64,000 bases of DNA from Candidatus Binatia bacterium (GTDB lineage: Bacteria; Desulfobacterota; Binatia; Bin18), in assembly GCA_022824615.1 (NCBI GenBank), contig JAJDZM010000093.1, forward strand, positions 654-64,653. Direction: 5' to 3'. The notes under the pieces were generated by a model. The model was given only the letters and a program-made list of their open reading frames with translations. It did not search any database and was not told where the DNA came from. The translations under genes and the position numbers were made by a program. Below, one piece after another: positions 5,603-58,029 of the stretch (within the stretch, counting starts at the first letter, position 1; each line of letters opens with the position of its first letter).

Positions 5603-8600
5603 ATGCCCGACTGGAGCAAGCATTTTTGGCAGCGTCAGGGAAAAGCGACTCAATGGCTATGTGGCGGGATCGTTCTGCTGACGACGCTCCTGGTGAGTCA
5701 GAATCTCGCCGACGGCAATAGCCCGGCCTTTCATTTCCATCCGCTGTCTCCACCCAACGCGATTGCTCCGACAAGCGAGTCGTCCGCAGAGACCGACCCT
5801 GACCCCCGTGCGACCGAGTTGGCCCGGCGTCTCCGCCAACATCTGGGACTCCAAACCGCAACGCAACGGACGGCAACGCAGCCTACCCCGGGACAGAGCA
5901 ACGCGCTGTCCCGACTGCGAGCCCGCCTCCAAGAGGCTGTCTCCGTTCGGCTCCGTCCTGCTGTTGGAACGCCCCTACAGATTAAGGGCAAGGCGATGGA
6001 GCGTGCCCAGTCCGGTTTCTTCTCCAGTTTTTTCTCTGGCAAAGAGACCCACGAGGCAACGGCCCGGACATTTCTCCAGACGAATCGTGCTCTGCTCCGC
6101 CTTGACGACCCGCAGGCCGAACTCACACTGACCCGGCAGCAGACCGACGACCTGAGCCAGACCCATCTGCGTTTTGACCAGACGTATAAGGGCCTGCTCG
6201 TGTGGCCGGCCGAGTTGATTGTCCATCTTGACCCGAACGGCCATGTTGATTTGCTGAATGGGGCGTTCGTACCCACTCCCAAAAAGCTCGACACGGTTCC
6301 GGTCATTGACGAAGTCACCGCCATCGAATACGCCCGCACTGCGCTGACCGACGGAGACAAGGCCGAGGTCAGCGCATCCGAACTCATTATTTACGCTCCC
6401 GGCGACACTCCGCCCCGACTGGCCTGGAAACTGGAGTTGGATATCGATTTGACCTCCCATTGGCTAGTGGTCATTGACGCTATCAACGGAGACGAGTTGA
6501 CCGCCTATAGCCAAATCATGCACCAGCATGTCTCCGGATCAGGTACAGATTTGTTCGGCATCACCCGTCCGCTCAATGTCTGGCAGCAAGACGGTTTTTT
6601 CTGGATGTTCGATACCAGCAAATCCATGTTCGATCCCAACGCAGACCCAAGAGAGCGTGGCGTTATCTGGATTTACGATGCACAGAACCAGCCGCCAACA
6701 TCCGACCCTGAGATCGTTGCCGATCTCATCCCTCCCGCTCCGGTCGTCAATTCGAGAAGTTCAACCTCCGGGTGGCTGCCTGATGCAGTCAGCGCGTCGT
6801 ACAACCTTTCTCAAGCTTACGACTATTATAGAGAGCGGCACAGTCGGGACTCTTATAACGGTGAGGGGGCATCAATTCACGCGATGGTGCGTCTTGGTCA
6901 GAATTTTCGGAATGCGTTCTATAACCCTGGTCTTAATCTGATAGCATTTGGCGATGGATTACCATATGCTGGAGCGCTTGACGTTGTTGGCCACGAACTG
7001 ACTCACAGCGTCATCCAGTACTCGGCGGATTTGGTCTATCGAAACCAGCCAGGAGCGCTGAATGAGGCTTTTTCAGACATCTTTGGAGAAATGATCGAAG
7101 CCCGGACTACGGGCAGGCCGGATTGGATTATGGGCCAAGTTCTTGGCGACCGGCGGTTCATGCGCAATATGGCCAACCCCGCCGCTTTCACCTTTTCTGC
7201 TGGGCGACCTTATCCGACCAGAATGAGCGAGTTTGTTGAACTACCACTGGATCAAGACAACGGCGGCGTTCATATCAATAGCAGTATTATCAACCGGGCG
7301 TATTATCTGCTCGCAGCGGGTCTTGACGGGGCCATAGGCTTGCGCGATGCCGAGCGAATTTTCTACCGCGCACTGACCGTCTATCTGACCCGAAACTCGC
7401 AGTTTATTGACGCCCGTCTGGCCTGTATTCAAGCCGCGGAAGATATTTTTAGAACGGAGTCAACCCAGACCCGGAAAACAGCCGAGGCGTTTGATGCTGT
7501 CGAGATTGGGGCCGTCCCTCCCACGCCGGACCTACCGGATATTCCCACCGTTCAGGGGCCGGATGCCAGCCTGTTTATATATCGTGACCAATCCGGTCAG
7601 TTCCGGCTGGGGCGGTTGGAAGACGCGCGCGGCGACGAGGCCCACGGTATACAACTCGCCAACGCGGTCGTGGCTGCGGCTCGGCCCTCTGTCTCCCGCA
7701 ATGGCGAGTTAGCCGTCTTTGTCAATGCCCAAAATGACCTCTGCTTGATCGGAACAGATGGGAGTGGGGAATGGTGCGCCGGTTTTCCGGGTCTTGTTGC
7801 TTCGGTTGCCATGTCACCCGACAGCCGCTTTTACGGATTTGTCTTTCGGGACGCTCAGGGCAATGCAGATAACCGGATCACTGTTCTTGATGTGGAAACC
7901 GGTCGAGACCGGACCTTCACCCTCACGGCGCCGTCCTACGATGGCCCGGCAACCGATACCATCCTCCGTGTCGACGCCATGGATTTCACCAATGACGGGC
8001 AGTGGGTCATCTACGACGCTCTGAACGCGATAAACTTCGCCGATGGTTCCCAACTGAGACAATGGAGCCTGTACGCCTTGCATCTGGCTACAGGCACAAA
8101 CTTGCCCTTGATCCGGCCCATACCCGGCCTCAATATCGCCTATCCATCCCTGAGTCAGACCAGTGATAATTTCCTGACCTTTGATGTTTTTGACGAAGCT
8201 CGGAATCAATCCACTGTCTACACCGCCAATCTGAATACCGGAAATGTGGCGACCATTACGACAGTGGCGGGCAGCTACGGCGTGCCCGGCTATACGGGCG
8301 ACGATGCGGCACTGGTGTTTTCCAAGGATGACACGAGCGTTCCGACCGGGTTTTCTCTGGTCCGGCAGCCATTGGCAGCCGACCGCATTACGCCCCAGGG
8401 CCAGGCATCGGTTTGGCTGAGGGATGCCGATTTTGGCGTCATCTACCGCCGGTCGGGCTTAACCGGTGTCCTGGAGAACCCCTCCTCCGGGGCGTTCCAG
8501 AGCGGCATCGGGCTGTTCTCCGGTTGGGTATGCGACGCCTTGCGGGTTGAGATTGAAATTAACGGTACGACACGGCTGAATGCCGCGTACAGGACCATTC

Positions 8601-12427: not shown

Positions 12428-13792
12428 ATGAGTGATGCGCCTGCCAGGCTGGAAGAATACGCACCAGAATCAATCCTGACGATTGACGAATACGAGCCCT
12501 ATATCGGCCAGGAAGGGGTCGATGCGCTCAAGCAGCTTGCCGCTCCCGTTGAAGGGAAAGGCTGGGCAAATATCAACTCGACCTTTGTGGGCGGTGGGGT
12601 GGCGGAGATGCTGCGGAGTGTGATTCCGCTTGCCCGCTCACTCGGTGTTCACGCCCGCTGGTTTACCATCCAGGGCCATGAGGCGTTTTTTCATGTCACC
12701 AAGAAGTTTCACAACACGCTCCAGGGCGTAGACCAGCCGATTTCTCTTCAGGAACTGTTTGAAACCTATTTGGATAATCTGGCCGCCCACGCTCAAAATG
12801 CCGCAATAGAATCTGATCTGATTGTTGTCCACGATCCCCAACCTGCGGCGCTGATTATGAGTGGCCTGCTCATGGGCAATGTGCTGTGGCGGTGCCATAT
12901 TGACACGTCAACGCCGAACCCGACGGTGTGGCGTTTCCTGGCCCCCTACCTCAACCAGTATGCGGGTGCGATTTTTACCATGCCCGAGTTTGTCGGACCG
13001 GGATTACAGATTCCCCAATACCAGATTACGCCGTGCATAGACCCGCGGGTGGAAAAAAATCAGCAGTATACCGAAACCCGTGCCAAAGAGGTGCTCGCCC
13101 CACTGTTCCGGCAGCATGTGATCGACCCCGACCGTCCGATTCTCGCTGCCATTTCACGCTATGATATCCATAAAAATCAGGCGTCTATCCTGAGTGCTTT
13201 CAAACGCCTGCGTCAGCACAAGACCTATGACCCGATGCCCTATCTCATCTTTCTGGGCAACACCGCAACCGATGACCCGGAGGGTGAGGCCATGCTGGAG
13301 CAACTGCAAGCGCAAGCCGGCGCTGACCCTGATATCCGTTTCTGGGTCAATGTTGAAAACAACGATCAGGTCGTCGGTTCGCTGATGCGTCTGGCCCGGG
13401 GCTTCGTCCATATCTCAACCCGCGAAGGCTTTGGCCTGGTCGTGTCCGAGGCGTTGTGGCAGGGAACCCCGGTTATTGGCTCGCGTGTCGGGGGGATTGT
13501 GCAACAAGTCATTGACGGGCAGACGGGTTATCTGGTTGAACCCATGGACGTTGAGGCAATTGCAACGAAAATGGCCCGGATTCTTGATGAGCCAGAGCAA
13601 ACGGCACGACTCGGCCGGCAGGCTCAGGAACATGTGCGTCAAAATTTTCTGCTACCGGAATTGGTTCGGCGCTATCTGATCCTGCTCCGCTATTACACCG
13701 GAGTTGACCGAGACCACCCGACGTTTCGCCTGAACCCAACCAGCTATCACGAGGTGCTGGCCAGCCTTCTACCAATACCCGCCGACTTGTGA
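12428..13792 (+). CDS. GT4-family glycosyltransferase (trehalose-synthase/TreT-like architecture)
   Basis: C-terminal GT4 core (ISTREGFGLVVSEALWQGTPVIGSRVGGI, E-x7-E). Long N-terminal domain as in TreT / glucosyl-glycerate-synthase-like enzymes. Confidence 0.75.
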   Translation: MSDAPARLEEYAPESILTIDEYEPYIGQEGVDALKQLAAPVEGKGWANINSTFVGGGVAEMLRSVIPLARSLGVHARWFTIQGHEAFFHVTKKFHNTLQGVDQPISLQELFETYLDNLAAHAQNAAIESDLIVVHDPQPAALIMSGLLMGNVLWRCHIDTSTPNPTVWRFLAPYLNQYAGAIFTMPEFVGPGLQIPQYQITPCIDPRVEKNQQYTETRAKEVLAPLFRQHVIDPDRPILAAISRYDIHKNQASILSAFKRLRQHKTYDPMPYLIFLGNTATDDPEGEAMLEQLQAQAGADPDIRFWVNVENNDQVVGSLMRLARGFVHISTREGFGLVVSEALWQGTPVIGSRVGGIVQQVIDGQTGYLVEPMDVEAIATKMARILDEPEQTARLGRQAQEHVRQNFLLPELVRRYLILLRYYTGVDRDHPTFRLNPTSYHEVLASLLPIPADL

Positions 13793-13905
13793 GTCCGTTG
13801 AGTCTATGGAGTCTCTTGGGTCCTTTGAGTCCTTGACTCAACAGACGCTATAGACCCAACAGACCCCATTGACCCTATTGACTCAATAGACTCCATAGAC
13901 ATAGG
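13791..13905. repeat. palindromic array of 9-bp units (5 x GRGTCYNTK forward, then about 7 units in reverse orientation ...NAGAC(C/T)C...) filling the GT4-rfbB intergenic region
   Basis: GAGTCCGTT GAGTCTATG GAGTCTCTT GGGTCCTTT GAGTCCTTG | ACTCAACAG ACGCTATAG ACCCAACAG ACCCCATTG ACCCTATTG ACTCAATAG ACTCCATAG AC. Same unit family as the array at 54215. Confidence 0.85.
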
Positions 13906-13916
13906 CATGAGCACGT

Positions 13917-15017
13917 ATGGAGACCATGTTGATCACTGGCGGGGCAGGGTTTATCGGGAGCAATCTGGTTCGCCTCGCCCTGGCCGAAACAACGGCCTCT
14001 GTCATCATCGTTGATAAGTTGACGTATGCCGGCAGTCTGAACAATCTTGAAGACGTCCTCCACAATCCGCGTGTGACCTTTTCCCGGACCGATATCACCG
14101 AGCAGACGGCGGTGGCGGAATTATTCCGGACGTATCGGCCTCAGGCCGTGGTGAACTGCGCCGCGGAGACCCATGTGGACCGTTCCATTGACAATCCCTG
14201 GCCGTTTGTTGAAACGAATCTGCTTGGAACATTTTATTTGCTGGAGGAGGCCCGAAAATATGCGGCTTCCCCGTCCGTCCAGGGACAGTTCCGCTTTTTG
14301 CACGTCTCGACAGACGAAGTATACGGCAGCCTTGGGCCGCTGGGCCGCTTTTCCGAATCCAGCCCATACGCGCCGAATTCGCCGTATTCCGCCTCAAAGG
14401 CGAGCGCCGATCATTTTGCCCGCGCCTATTACGAGACGTATGGTCTGCACACGCTGATCACGAGTTGTTCCAATAATTATGGCCCCTATCAGTTTCCGGA
14501 AAAACTCATCCCGCTGATGATTCTGAACGCCCTTGAGGGCAAATCCCTTCCAATCTACGGCGATGGACAACACGTCCGTGACTGGCTGTACGTTGAAGAC
14601 CACTGTCGGGGCATCTTGCTTGTTTTGCGGCAGGGCAAGAGTGGCGAACAATATCATATCGGGGGGGGAAATGAGCGGACCAATCGTGCGGTTGTGGAGC
14701 AGGTCTGTACCATTCTTGAGGCACTGCTACCGGCCTCAAAAAATGCGGCTCTTAAGCAGCGAGGCATTCCAGCCTACTCCGAGCTGATGACCTTTGTGAC
14801 CGATCGTCCCGGCCATGATCGACGCTATGCCATCGACGCCACAAAAATCAGAACCCAGCTCGGTTGGCGGCCACGCTACACGTTCGAGCGTGGCCTGGCA
14901 CAGACGATCCGTTGGTATGTGGACAATCGGCGGTGGTGTGAAGCTATTGAGGCGGACAGGTATAACCGCGAGCGTCTGGGGTTAGGTGCTGCGCCTCTGA
15001 CAAAGGATAGATCATGA
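13917..15017 (+). CDS. rfbB: dTDP-glucose 4,6-dehydratase
   Basis: TGGAGFIGS Rossmann motif, YSASKA catalytic motif, full-length similarity to RfbB. Confidence 0.9.
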
Positions 15018-53650: not shown

Positions 53651-53883
53651 AGCGTTTCACGATAAGTTGGAGCCATGCCAGTCCGCGCTCGTCGGGAAGG
53701 ACAAGGGCCTGTCCCAAACGGCCTGGGAGGGCGCACTCCTCTAGGACGTGTGATGCAGATTAACTGGTCCGGTACCGGACCGGCTGCCCATCCTTCTCCT
53801 TCGCCCCTATGGGACTCCGCTCAGCACGAACGGAGGTCCCGGCGCAGGCCGGGCAACCACAAGGGTTGCCCCTACCATATACA

Positions 53884-53921
53884 TTCCCTCTCCCCTGGAG
53901 GGAGAGGGCTAGGGTGAGGGG
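53884..53921. repeat. REP-like hairpin element, copy 2
   Basis: CCCTCTCCCCT-ggag-GGGAGAGGG-ctAGGGTGAGGGGG. Compare 3077-3115. Confidence 0.7.
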
Positions 53922-54016
53922 GCCGGGCCTGCTGTCCGTAGGGACCGCCACACAATGGGTATCACTCCTCTAGGAGAAGAGAGACGCACTACACAGCCTC
54001 GTGATTTGCTCTAGGC

Positions 54017-54214
54017 TCAGGACGGGGTTTGTGAGGGAATTTGTCCCGAGGATTTGCTCCGGGAGCGCTTCACAACAACAACATTCTGGCCGTTGACGCG
54101 AACGGTGCGTTTATCTGCGGTGGGAGAAGACTGCTGGACCGGCTTGCGGCCACGCTCTTCTCGCCACCGTTTGAGTTGTTGTTCCAGGTCTTTCGAATTC
54201 ACTCGTTCCTCCAA
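54017..54214 (-). CDS. small basic hypothetical protein
   Basis: 65-aa Lys/Arg-rich ORF starting right after the 9-bp repeat array. Weak. Confidence 0.2.
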   Translation of the reverse strand: MEERVNSKDLEQQLKRWREERGRKPVQQSSPTADKRTVRVNGQNVVVVKRSRSKSSGQIPSQTPS

Positions 54215-54304
54215 TTGGGTCTATGGGGTCTGTTGGGTCTATGGGGTCTGTTGGGTCTGTTGGGTCTGTTGGGTCTGTTGGGCCGGACTCAAGGGACTCA
54301 ATGT
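54215..54304. repeat. tandem array of eight 9-bp units (TTGGGTCTR/TGGGGTCTG) followed by two reverse-type units (GACTCAAGG GACTCAATG), directly after the rpoD stop codon
   Basis: TTGGGTCTA TGGGGTCTG TTGGGTCTA TGGGGTCTG TTGGGTCTG x3 TTGGGCCGG. Same unit family as 13791-13905. Confidence 0.85.
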
Positions 54305-56127
54305 TAGCTATCGATAAAGGCTTCCAGACTCTTCGCTCGGGTTGGGTTGCGTAATTTCCGTAAGGCTTTGGCCTCAATCTGACGGATGCGCTCACGGGTC
54401 ACGGCAAAGCGCTGTCCCACTTCTTCAAGTGTGTAATCTGTCTTTTCGTCAATGCCGAACCGCATACGCAGGATCTGCTCCTCGCGCGGCGTCAGGGTGG
54501 CGAGGACTTTGCGTGTCTGTTCCTCTAAACTGAGGGCCATCGCCGCGTCTGCCGGAGAGAGGGTCTGCCGATCTTCAACAAAATCTCCCAGCGAACTTTC
54601 CTCATCATCGCCAATTGGCGTCTCCAGGGAGACCGGCTCTTTGACGATTTTGAGGACTTTCCGGACTTTGTCCGCCGGCACTTCCATCTGGGCGGCAATC
54701 TCTTCCGGCGAAGGTTCCCGGCCGAGCTGTTGGACCAGGTAGCGAGAGGTCCGCAGCACCTTATTGATCGTCTCAATCATATGGACCGGGATGCGAATCG
54801 TCCGGGCCTGGTCGGCGATGGCGCGACTCACCGACTGTCGAATCCACCACGTTGCATAGGTCGAGAATTTATAGCCGCGTTGATACTCAAATTTTTCAAC
54901 CGCGCGCATCAGACCGATATTACCCTCCTGAATCAGGTCCAGAAATCCCAGCCCGCGGTTGACATAGCGTTTGGCAATACTCACCACCAGGCGCAGATTG
55001 GCTTCAATGAGACGGCGCTTGCCTTCTTGCGCCTGGGCTTCTCCGCGCGCAATCGTCTTCAGGGCCTGCCGCAGCTCTTCTCGATTTGTGCCAAGCTGCC
55101 TCTCAAGGTACTGAATTGCTTTGCGGGCGTCCTTGATGGTCTGACTGGCTTCTTGGATTTTCTGTGCCTGGGCCTTTCCACCGCTCTCTCCCGCTCTCGG
55201 ACGGGTCCGTCCATTCTTTGATGTGGACTCACGTGCCAGGGCGAGAATCTCAGACGCCTTGCAATTCAGGGCGGACTCTTGTCTGCGGATGGTCCGCTCA
55301 TGCTTGTCCAGCATGACGCCGACTTCCTTGAGTTTATCGGTCACCACCGTAATATGACGCCGCCCCAAAGGCAGACTGTCCAGTGAAACCCTGATCTTCT
55401 CGCGGAGGGTGCCCAGCCGCTTCAGTGCCTTCTCTCGCTCTGCGACCGGACTCCGCTTGCGAGACAATGTTGTTGCCTTTTCCCGCTCTCCGGCCAGGCG
55501 TTTGAGCGGTCCCATACGGCCCAGAAAGAGCGTAATGCGCTGGTCTTCCTTGCCGGACGTATCGGCATCCTCTTCTTCGTCGCCAAAAATACGCCGCGCT
55601 TCTGTTTCGTCCTGTTTGAGCCGACTCCCCAGAGATAAGATATATTGGAGCGCCAAAGGGGTGGAGAAGATCTCCTGGCGAATGCATTTCTCCCCAGCCT
55701 CAATCTCTTTTGCGATCGCCACCTCCTCCTCACGGCTCAGGAGGGGGATATTGCCCATCTCCTGGAGATACATCCGGACAGGGTCTGACGTGTCTCCCGT
55801 CACTGGCTCCCCAGCCGTGACCACTCTCTCTCCCCAGCTCTCTTCGTCCTGTTTCGCCGTCTCAGGAGCAGCGGTCTCCTCTTCTCCAATGCTGGTGGAG
55901 TTCCTTTCCTCAAGCACATCAACCGTCTCAATATCCATATCTTCAAGAATGGACATGATTTCCATTTCTCGTGCCGGTTTCTCCCCTTGTGGCGTTGAAG
56001 CAGCAGGGGTGACAGCCTGGGCTTTTATCAGGATGGATTTCTCAGACTGCCGCGCCGCTGTCTGTAGGGAAGTTTTTCGGAGGGTCTGCGAAACCGTCGC
56101 CGTTTTTCCGTTTTTCTTTTTTTCCAT
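54304..56127 (-). CDS. rpoD: RNA polymerase primary sigma factor
   Basis: Region 1.2 ([16 protein letters not shown]), 2.x ([30 protein letters not shown]), 3 and 4.2 HTH. Long acidic low-complexity N-terminus. Confidence 0.95.
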
Positions 56128-57300: not shown

Positions 57301-58029
57301 ATGAAGATTTTCTCTTCTCTTCTCTTCTCTTCTCTTCTCTTCTCTTCTCTTCTCTTCTCTTCTCTGAGCGCGTGTAGCAGCGCCACAGTCGGAAGAGAAG
57401 CGTTGAACCCGGCCCAACAGCAGATGTTGGACCGTGGTCTGGAAGTGTCGTCCGTCGCCGTCAAAACCGGCCAGCCCATTGCTGCGGGACGGATGTATGA
57501 ACGCCTGTCCACCTCCTTCCCGAGCGCCCCGGAACCGAAACTCGGGCTCGCCTATATGGCCCTGCACGCGGGCGACTTTGCGACCGCCGATGCCCTGTTC
57601 ACCGAAGCCAGTACACTGGCGACGCGACCGGCCCTCAAGGCCGAGGCCCTGCTCGGTGCCGGGCGGGCGAGTCTGGGGCGAGAAGACTTCGCCGCGGCCA
57701 AGACCCACTTCCTCGCCGCGGCCGAACCAGCCCAAGGCTCGCCTGTCGAGTCCTGGGTCATGAACGGTCTGGCGGTCGTGGCCGCGCTCGAAGGCGATTA
57801 CCCCCTGGCCGAGCAACACTACAGAGCAGCGCTGACAGTGGCGTCGCATCCGCTCATCACGGCCAACCTGATGCGGACACTCGTCGAGGCGGGCCGCATA
57901 GACGAAGCCCGCCAACTCCATGCCAGCCACAGCGCCACCTACTGGGCGGAAGGCGACAGGGCCGAGTTGTCACAACTGCTCAAAAACAGCACCACACGCG
58001 GGACGGAGCAAACGCCGGTCACTGAGTGA
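57301..58029 (+). CDS. TPR-like (Ala-rich helical repeat) lipoprotein whose signal peptide is encoded by a pentanucleotide repeat
   Basis: MKIFSSLLFSSLLFSSLLFSSLSAC with lipobox LSAC. Downstream TPR-like helices (GLAYMALHAGDFATADALF...). Confidence 0.6.
   Translation: MKIFSSLLFSSLLFSSLLFSSLSACSSATVGREALNPAQQQMLDRGLEVSSVAVKTGQPIAAGRMYERLSTSFPSAPEPKLGLAYMALHAGDFATADALFTEASTLATRPALKAEALLGAGRASLGREDFAAAKTHFLAAAEPAQGSPVESWVMNGLAVVAALEGDYPLAEQHYRAALTVASHPLITANLMRTLVEAGRIDEARQLHASHSATYWAEGDRAELSQLLKNSTTRGTEQTPVTE
57310..57364 (+). repeat. (TTCTC)11 perfect pentanucleotide microsatellite inside the 5' coding region
   Basis: 55 bp perfect repeat starting 9 nt after the ATG. It encodes (SSLLF)n in frame. 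Confidence 0.95.

Follow-up and report, generated by a model that had tools for sequence, protein, structure and literature searches.

Intervening sequences in 23S rRNA, such as those of Coxiella and Leptospira, are selfish, sporadic insertions in a transcribed region, and versions lacking an open reading frame (ORF) exist. In Coxiella, an S23p ORF is located in the loop of a stem that is formed by 28-bp terminal inverted repeats and cut by RNase III (PMC4990558). The repetitive extragenic palindromic (REP) elements and their composite forms, the bacterial interspersed mosaic elements (BIMEs) and REP doublets (REPINs), are high-copy intergenic sequences, found for the most part downstream of genes where the adjoining ORFs are co-directional or convergent; they often form inverted pairs that give larger hairpins, are transcribed, and vary in presence and absence (PMC3733652, PMC3116915). 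The REP unit is a 20–40-bp imperfect palindrome with an unpaired GTAG or CGTC tag (PMC3733652). Here, we analyzed a tandem array of 9-bp units located next to rpoD, the gene of the primary sigma factor, in a 64,000-nucleotide stretch of DNA (the window) from Candidatus Binatia bacterium (GenBank assembly GCA_022824615.1, contig JAJDZM010000093.1, positions 654 to 64,653 of the forward strand). In the way it works, the array is closest to an intervening sequence without an ORF or to an operon-spacer element of the REP/BIME type, and in appearance it resembles a bacterial counterpart of the foldback transposons. With high confidence, it is a dispersed, polymorphic insertion. With confidence only slightly above even, we read it as a copy, without cargo and in decay, of a foldback cassette that is like an intervening sequence, the length of this copy changing by slippage.

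The likeness to the 23S rRNA intervening sequences is clearest in the complete cassettes of the family, where an ORF of the family PF05635 is placed in the loop of an inverted-repeat stem; the cassettes from Binatia, cyanobacteria and Riemerella are predicted to fold likewise. Unlike in the 23S rRNA systems, the host of the window array is an mRNA spacer (between rpoD and a small ORF) and not a 23S rRNA helix, and no rRNA was found in the window with Rfam. The arms consist of tandem 7–9-bp units in variable number instead of a unique 28-bp inverted repeat, and the rpoD copy in the window has no ORF and almost no sense-strand stem. As with REP elements and REPINs, all array sites with callable neighbors lie between co-directional genes, but the unit is a non-palindromic 9-mer repeated head-to-tail, and palindromy exists only between the arms. 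No REP tag (GTAG/CTAC or CGTC) was present in 54215–54303, and a second array in the window had a single GACG inside one degenerate unit. No REP-associated tyrosine transposase (RAYT) was seen in the 64-kb window and the 8-kb loci (no whole-genome search was made).

Foldback (FB) transposons of Drosophila and miniature inverted-repeat transposable elements (MITEs) have arms of tandem short repeats in variable number; most copies are gene-less and a few carry cargo. The arrays described here likewise have inverted tandem-repeat arms with a variable number of units and are mostly cargo-less. FB transposons are, however, eukaryotic, and here no transposase, clear target-site duplication or uniform copy length was found. 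As for an autonomous relative encoding a transposase, the only cargo found between arms was a PF05635 gene, which is not a known transposase. The short tandemly repeated repetitive (STRR) heptamer arrays of heterocystous cyanobacteria are reportedly lineage-typical, dispersed and intergenic, with no established function. Within the seven cyanobacterial plasmid loci covered by the comparison, 7-mer arms of STRR type surround PF05635 genes in Nostoc, Calothrix and Anabaena plasmids, whereas the window array has a period of 9 and belongs to Candidatus Binatia, not cyanobacteria.

Structure and polymorphism of the array beside rpoD

The rpoD site was compared with seven orthologous loci of relatives. 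Unit counts are given in the rpoD sense orientation (5′ arm + 3′ arm), and identities are those of the rpoD nucleotide sequence to the window. The window allele has 2 + 8 units. At L122 (92.6%), the site is empty, and GATAGCTAA continues directly into ATTGGAGGAACGAGTG. Filled alleles were found at L119 (95.2%; 0 forward + 7 reverse units), L124 (90.1%; 5 + 5) and L125 (90.1%; 2 + 11), so that the unit count varies between strains, as the initial annotation had anticipated. In L123 (89.3%), precisely this insertion point is taken by a GC-rich element of 190 bp that is unrelated to the array, and L120 (87.3%) and L121 (85.6%) have spacers of 44 and 33 nt, respectively, without an array. The order of rpoD and then the small ORF was kept at all seven loci, and according to the gene tables a convergent isocitrate-dehydrogenase-like gene comes next in five of them.

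In the rpoD tree, the filled alleles were found in two clades with the unfilled ones interleaved. The right junction, GACCCA followed by ATTGGAGG, was common to all filled alleles, which points either to one old insertion with later losses or to site-specific re-insertion. The sequence AATTG is present at both array ends in L124 and occurs once in the empty L122 site; it could belong to the terminal unit. Judged from these alleles, the array is not a conserved rpoD feature and is best described as an unstable insertion.

Direct reading of the letters gave eight 9-bp units and then two inverted units, in agreement with the initial annotation, and Tandem Repeats Finder reported 54215–54282 as a repeat with period 9, 7.6 copies, 88% matches and a score of 108 (consensus TTGGGTCTG). 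The forward-then-reverse layout that had been described downstream of rpoD was also found, but rpoD lies on the minus strand, so that in the direction of transcription two TTGAGTC-type units come first and eight GACCCAA-type units second. Likewise, the array does adjoin the rpoD stop codon and the small ORF, but the reported 1-nt gap does not exist: the last unit abuts the stop codon at 54304–54306, and the other end adjoins the Shine-Dalgarno sequence at 54208–54212. The whole gap that separates the rpoD stop codon from the small ORF's ribosome-binding site is thus taken up by the array. On the rpoD sense strand, the order is TAA-C-ATTGAGTCC-CTTGAGTCC-GGCCCAACA-(GACCCAACA/GACCCCATA)x6-GACCCA, followed directly by ATTGGAGGAACGAGTG, which comprises the Shine-Dalgarno sequence and the GTG start of the small ORF. 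The 5′ arm on this strand reads CATTGAGTC CCTTGAGTC, right behind the stop codon, and the 3′ arm is the C/A-rich (GACCCAACA)n. The small ORF (Shine-Dalgarno GGAGG; likely start GTG at 54200–54202, alternative TTG at 54212–54214) had no Pfam family match; it is a real gene. It was overlooked by gene callers in several assemblies.

An independent short-read contig (L001, Logan SRR16351687) was 100% identical over 3087 bp and broke off within the rpoD array. The array is thus present in a separate assembly, and its reading as an assembly artefact was rejected on the basis of this identity and of the related arrays at the same site in four other assemblies. The ORF 54111–54395(−), which translates the array as PTDPTD, had already been considered an artefact, correctly so: it overlaps the rpoD 3′ end and the small ORF, gave only sub-threshold low-complexity Pfam hits, and needs DNA that is missing in L122 (94% RpoD). 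More generally, a coding amino-acid repeat was ruled out, as the array-spanning ORFs overlap rpoD and the small ORF and have no family support, and the array is absent in L122. A CRISPR array was ruled out as well, the units being contiguous, without spacers. The features of both array loci in the window are listed in Table 1.

Table 1. Coordinates of the two arrays in the window and of their neighboring genes
Feature	Coordinates	Strand	Description
Eight-unit 9-bp arm, array next to rpoD	54215..54285		TTGGGTCTA / TGGGGTCTG / TTGGGTCTG; eighth unit TTGGGCCG (54278-54285) degenerate
Two-unit inverted arm, array next to rpoD	54286..54303		GACTCAAGG (54286-54294) + GACTCAATG (54295-54303)
rpoD, primary sigma factor, 607 aa	54304..56127	-	stop TAA 54304-54306; Sigma70 r1_2/r2/r3/r4 domains
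Small basic ORF, conserved, VNSKDLEQQLKRWREERGRKP...VRVNGQNVVVVKRSRSK	54017..54214	-	in all seven relatives; right-hand boundary of the insertion site
Second array, forward arm, 5 units	13790..13834		TGAGTC, TTGAGTC, TGGAGTC, TTGGGTC, TTGAGTC
Second array, reverse arm, ~8 units	13835..13906		GACTCAACA, GACGCTATA, GACCCAACA, GACCCCATT, GACCCTATT, GACTCAATA, GACTCCATA, GACATAGGC
TreT-type glycosyltransferase, upstream neighbor of second array	12428..13792	+	PF21269 in homologues
rfbB, dTDP-glucose 4,6-dehydratase-like, downstream neighbor of second array	13917..15017	+	

Two other repeats were observed near the locus. A perfect microsatellite, (TTCTC)x11.2 (Tandem Repeats Finder score 112), occupies 57310–57365, an intergenic position upstream of the TetR-family gene adjoining rpoD. 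A second dispersed repeat type is GC-rich (e.g., GGGAGAGGGCTAGGGTGAGGGGG) and was found in the window (53843–53923), L123 (11830–12020) and L122 (12260–12330); the window copy has 85% identity to L063 5825–5906, from another Binatia genome.

The nonamer family and associated PF05635 cassettes

The pattern of two adjacent units, with up to two mismatches, had 13 matches in the window against 0.22 expected from shuffles, and all 13 were confined to the rpoD array and the second array. The statement of the initial annotation that an array with the same unit and layout exists 40 kb away was therefore correct. The first unit of the second array provides the TGA stop codon (13790–13792) of the TreT gene, and the array ends 10 nt ahead of the rfbB ATG. 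It was found in the window and in L129 (TreT 90%), with a common left junction (TTG-TGA-GTC) and differing interiors, and was absent in L128 (95%), L130 and L131; L128 and L131 have a common unrelated spacer in its place.

By its RpoD homologues, the window belongs to the Candidatus Binatia lineage. In all DNA fetched for the analysis, 28 arrays were head-to-head (..TTGRGTC units, then GACYCAA..) and none was tail-to-tail. They were obtained from at least eight Binatia genomes, two Blastocatellia metagenome-assembled genomes (MAGs), one MAG labelled 'Enterobacteriaceae', and two phage contigs, most arrays being from Candidatus Binatia MAGs. What had been called a genome-specific repeat class is thus one class, as proposed, but it extends over many Binatia genomes and was also found in two MAGs of Blastocatellia and on two phage contigs. 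The unit consensus is YRTTGRGTC (240 units), in which the 7-nt core TTGRGTC is kept and the 2-nt spacer is variable, and the arms meet as GTC-N1-3-GAC in 16 of the 28 arrays. Gene contexts were called by a crude longest-ORF method; at every site where both neighbors could be called, these were co-directional, and the array filled the short space separating them, at a distance of a few to ~30 nt from either gene. The first unit supplies the TGA stop codon of the upstream gene at three sites: TreT in the window and glmU in L107 and L117. For a scan of species-representative genomes, the pattern was too degenerate: the informative ones among the matches listed were Binatia, Blastocatellia and similar loci, and the list also included many coding Pro/Thr/Asp- or Gly/Ser/Val-repeat genes (Streptomyces and others). 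The matches nevertheless showed Binatia MAGs to be very rich in arrays of this kind. A full-text search found no published description of the nonamer family or of its link to a gene between the arms, most subscription journals being outside its coverage.

A local microsatellite, that is, in-place replication slippage from a chance seed unrelated to other loci, would agree with the local homogenization of units within an arm and with the copy number differences among relatives, and the empty site does contain ATTGGAG, one mismatch from part of a unit. However, the unit and its bipartite inverted layout recur at loci that are not linked to each other, and also in further genomes, phages and a second phylum, and slippage alone produces neither an inverted arm nor a fixed polarity. 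This explanation is extremely improbable.

Several further observations concern members of the family. The contigs L113 (1889–2006) and L118 (4605–4703), from different Binatia genomes, contain an orthologous spacer with clearly homologous flanks and an array in both; the units differ (8 + 5 and 6 + 6), and one arm is homogenized to GGGTCTATA x5. At this spacer, the location is preserved and the content turns over. Two IMG/VR phage contigs carry arrays at 1335–1403, 2391–2450 and 7016–7049 (L126) and at 2625–2730 and 7385–7480 (L127), each in ~12 kb, which is a density above that of the window (2 in 64 kb). Their neighbors are tail and tape-measure genes, and both L127 arrays and two of the three L126 arrays lie between a stop codon and a Shine-Dalgarno sequence of co-directional genes. 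Typical nonamer foldback arrays were also present on two contigs (L074 and L098) of CAZCWX01, the MAG labelled 'uncultured Enterobacteriaceae'; the label is doubtful, and these contigs may be mis-binned, or the family may reach beyond Binatia and Acidobacteriota. In L105, arrays at 5611–5702 and 7766–7840 precede two paralogous genes, both starting ...SYPITS(I/V)QKVEL..., and the longest ORF translates one array as the signal-peptide-like LLSLWGPLGLLGLWGL. Arrays may at times be co-opted into coding 5′ ends.

Full-size relatives of the arrays enclose a gene. In two Binatia genomes (L107, 7267–7910; L117, 117–654), three parts make up the glmU–glmS spacer: a forward array, a gene belonging to the 23S_rRNA_IVP family PF05635 (E = 1.4e-31 and 4.2e-31), and a reverse array. 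The forward arms have 6–12 units and the reverse arms 5–11, and the glmS ATG follows straight after the last unit. Traces of the arms were also found in proteins: 68 of 114 close homologues of the cassette protein had C-terminal tails of at least 6 aa, at least 38 of these 68 tails were translated reverse-type units with three-residue periodicity (TQR..., DPT..., ELN/KPN...), and three of five N-terminal extensions were translated forward-type units. Most contigs of the homologues are shorter than 3 kb, which would be expected of assemblies that break within the arms.

The same architecture was present on plasmids. All eight plasmid homologues inspected (of 13 matches) had a tandem array upstream and its reverse complement downstream. 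These cassettes (L132–L139) were from Nostoc (3), Calothrix (2), Anabaena sp. 90, Picosynechococcus PCC 7003 and Riemerella anatipestifer; their arms have a period of 7–8 bp and a different unit each time, always with the G-rich arm first, and the genes are annotated as 'four helix bundle' or 'S23 ribosomal protein'. Altogether, G-rich units came first on both strands in 28/28 solo arrays and 10/10 cassettes, with the G-rich strand in every case pointing to the center. In each of the nine cassettes that were folded, the predicted minimum-free-energy structure pairs both arms around the ORF, and the second array of the window has a predicted RNA fold with z = −3.9. No confirmed PF05635 relative was found in viral contigs by single-sequence and profile searches. 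To our knowledge, Avd is the only characterized member of PF05635, the genes of which are widespread and functionally obscure. PF05635 includes this protein as a reverse-transcriptase accessory protein of diversity-generating retroelements (PMC10053308). Several plasmid cassettes lie in operon spacers: between cas10 and cmr3, before cas4, and, on the opposite strand, between nrdB and nrdA. PF05635 genes within cas loci were earlier read as cas-associated (PMC3936711); the copies between cas10 and cmr3 and before cas4 look like operon-spacer insertions.

Proposed origin, structure and probable decay of the arms

We favor the following explanation. A dispersed foldback family, built of two head-to-head YRTTGRGTC arms with the G/T-rich units first and their complements second, occupies presumably transcribed spacers of Binatia genomes and phages, typically from a stop codon to the next ribosome-binding site. 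The element inserted between the rpoD stop codon and the Shine-Dalgarno sequence of the small ORF, where it is probably co-transcribed with the host operon. After arrival, each arm would gain and lose units independently by slipped-strand mispairing. In full-size relatives, the arms enclose a gene for a PF05635 protein (23S-rRNA-intervening-sequence, four-helix-bundle or Avd-like), would pair in the transcript into an extended, imperfect stem whose loop contains the ORF, and probably direct processing. This architecture matches that of the ORF-bearing 23S rRNA intervening sequences with their RNase III-cut stem; by analogy, the arms may be processed by RNase III, a step in which we have low confidence. 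The solo arrays, both window copies included, would then be the ORF-less version. That the arrays are related to the PF05635 cassettes is held with moderate confidence; the descent of one from the other, like the way in which new copies arise, is what we infer.

Slippage is consistent with the arms themselves: adjacent units within an arm matched at 1.08 of 2 variable positions, compared with 0.84 for random pairs, and greater likeness of adjacent units is expected from slippage. In the window allele, the 5′ arm is down to two units, which leaves a C-rich, unstructured spacer of ~75 nt and no real hairpin. As this arm is nearly gone, the element at the rpoD site is probably close to neutral, and it is most likely a decaying remnant with at most a polar effect on the small ORF.

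Several results weigh against the cassette explanation. A profile search found no PF05635 gene in the window or in the other ~40 array-bearing loci, and DNA-level cargo was present at only one Binatia site, common to two genomes; with a single cargo-bearing site, the parent–derivative relation can only be proposed. Nor were the arms more complementary than shuffled pairings, either at the variable positions (0.54–0.60 vs 0.74–0.84) or at the R/Y positions (0.39–0.43 vs 0.50–0.52), in small samples of 28 to 90 unit pairs. The sense RNA of the window array was essentially unstructured (−13.6 kcal/mol, z = −1.6). Taken together, the weak sense fold and the lack of compensatory variation do not demonstrate a selected RNA stem. 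The 7-nt core is kept at RpoD identities of ~70% and in another phylum, for which sequence-specific recognition by a protein is a better fit than a model where any complementary repeat would serve. The rule that the G-rich arm comes first is not accounted for by a simple hairpin requirement. No transposase, clear target-site duplication or transposition intermediate was found at the array loci examined, and the ORF contexts depend on crude longest-ORF calls.

The conserved core is one argument for a protein-binding array, in which each 9-bp unit is a module for a cooperatively coating, sequence-specific protein. This could be a nucleoid-associated or regulatory factor, or else the protein encoded by the PF05635 gene, and the binding would be similar to that of ribbon-helix-helix proteins to heptads or tetramer boxes without gaps. 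Ribbon-helix-helix arrays (the omega heptads of pSM19035 and the ParG tetramer boxes of TP228 parH) are made of contiguous 7–8-bp repeats, direct and converging, that are bound cooperatively, and the omega repressor binds direct and converging heptads, diverging ones poorly. A protein-binding array would suit the constancy of TTGRGTC alongside a variable 2-nt spacer, the arms without covariation, the single relative orientation of the arms (28 vs 0), and the conservation of the core across distant Binatia and Blastocatellia. A replicon, however, has one or a few ribbon-helix-helix arrays, placed at the promoter or the centromere of the operon to which they belong, whereas the arrays here are dispersed, polymorphic, and avoid promoter-type spacers, sitting within operons. 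Moreover, in close relatives the flanking genes are unaltered around a site that is empty or otherwise filled, the architecture persists in cassettes of other phyla whose units are wholly different, and no candidate binding protein was identified. We consider such an array rather unlikely. A recombination hotspot, which the initial annotation named as another role, may be a candidate as well. In PleI/N.BstNBI-type enzymes, the GAGTC site and the 4-nt cut distance add up to 9, matching the array period; the idea of a nicking enzyme found no support, since there was no marked avoidance of GAGTC in the sequence beyond the arrays (observed/expected 0.84, rank 109 of 1024 pentamers).

The predicted folds bear on control of the rpoD operon at the RNA level, by an intrinsic or Rho-dependent terminator, an attenuator, or an mRNA-stabilizing hairpin ahead of the small ORF. 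With rpoD and the small ORF in one operon, the array would be transcribed, and its RNA, ~75 nt rich in C and poor in G (C 39, G 19 of 107 nt), has the composition expected of a Rho loading site, so that a Rho-loading role of the rpoD spacer is conceivable from composition. The L124 (5 + 5) and L125 (2 + 11) alleles fold moderately (z = −2.6 and −3.4). Against this, the window allele has a stable fold only as antisense RNA (−45.6 kcal/mol, z = −6.1), no stem-plus-U-tract terminator site was found on the minus strand downstream of rpoD, and minimum free energies gave no consistent sense-versus-antisense bias across 17 arrays of the family. Rfam gave nothing at the gathering threshold, the only sub-threshold match near the array being a microRNA model (E = 0.25). 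The element is also absent in relatives that keep the rpoD–small ORF pair. The transcription terminator for rpoD suggested by the initial annotation is therefore unsupported, and RNA-level control as a whole is decidedly improbable.

The invariant polarity (28/28 solo arrays and 10/10 cassettes) could alternatively come from the healing of DNA breaks. In this case, a repeat-adding polymerase or a reverse transcriptase would add G-rich strands 5′→3′ to both 3′ ends left by a double-strand break, the PF05635 protein serving as a cofactor similar to Avd, and the ends would then be joined, with cargo captured or not. Besides the polarity, this would account for the independent unit numbers with arms out of register, for the tight GTC-N1-3-GAC center, and for the missing clear target duplication, and the placement of Avd in PF05635 is in line with it. 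However, no reverse transcriptase or template RNA was identified, the proposal draws purely on geometry, and constraints from an RNA stem or from protein binding might give the same polarity. It is accordingly regarded as improbable.

Meaning for Candidatus Binatia and PF05635 genes

For the rpoD locus itself, the outcome is deflationary: the array is an apparently recent, unstable insertion that does not belong to the regulation of rpoD, and no real ORF runs across it. The locus is ordinary, and the part worth pursuing is the cross-phylum architecture of arms and gene. The uncultured Candidatus Binatia gain a characteristic dispersed repeat, at which short-read assemblies break and from which spurious ORFs and spurious C-terminal tails arise.

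The analysis also joins dispersed short tandem repeats of unknown function with PF05635 genes, which are usually treated apart. Tentatively, short-tandem-repeat foldback arrays could be non-autonomous partners of PF05635 cassettes, together forming a cross-phylum selfish class in operon spacers and rRNA, possibly including the STRR heptamers of cyanobacteria; the polarity would then reflect how the arms are made, e.g., by repeat addition onto 3′ ends with a PF05635 cofactor. If the link between arms and PF05635 genes is general, it would provide a testable origin for short tandem repeats, the 'cas-associated' PF05635 genes would be re-read as insertions, and the idea of intervening sequences would extend from rRNA to mRNA operons.

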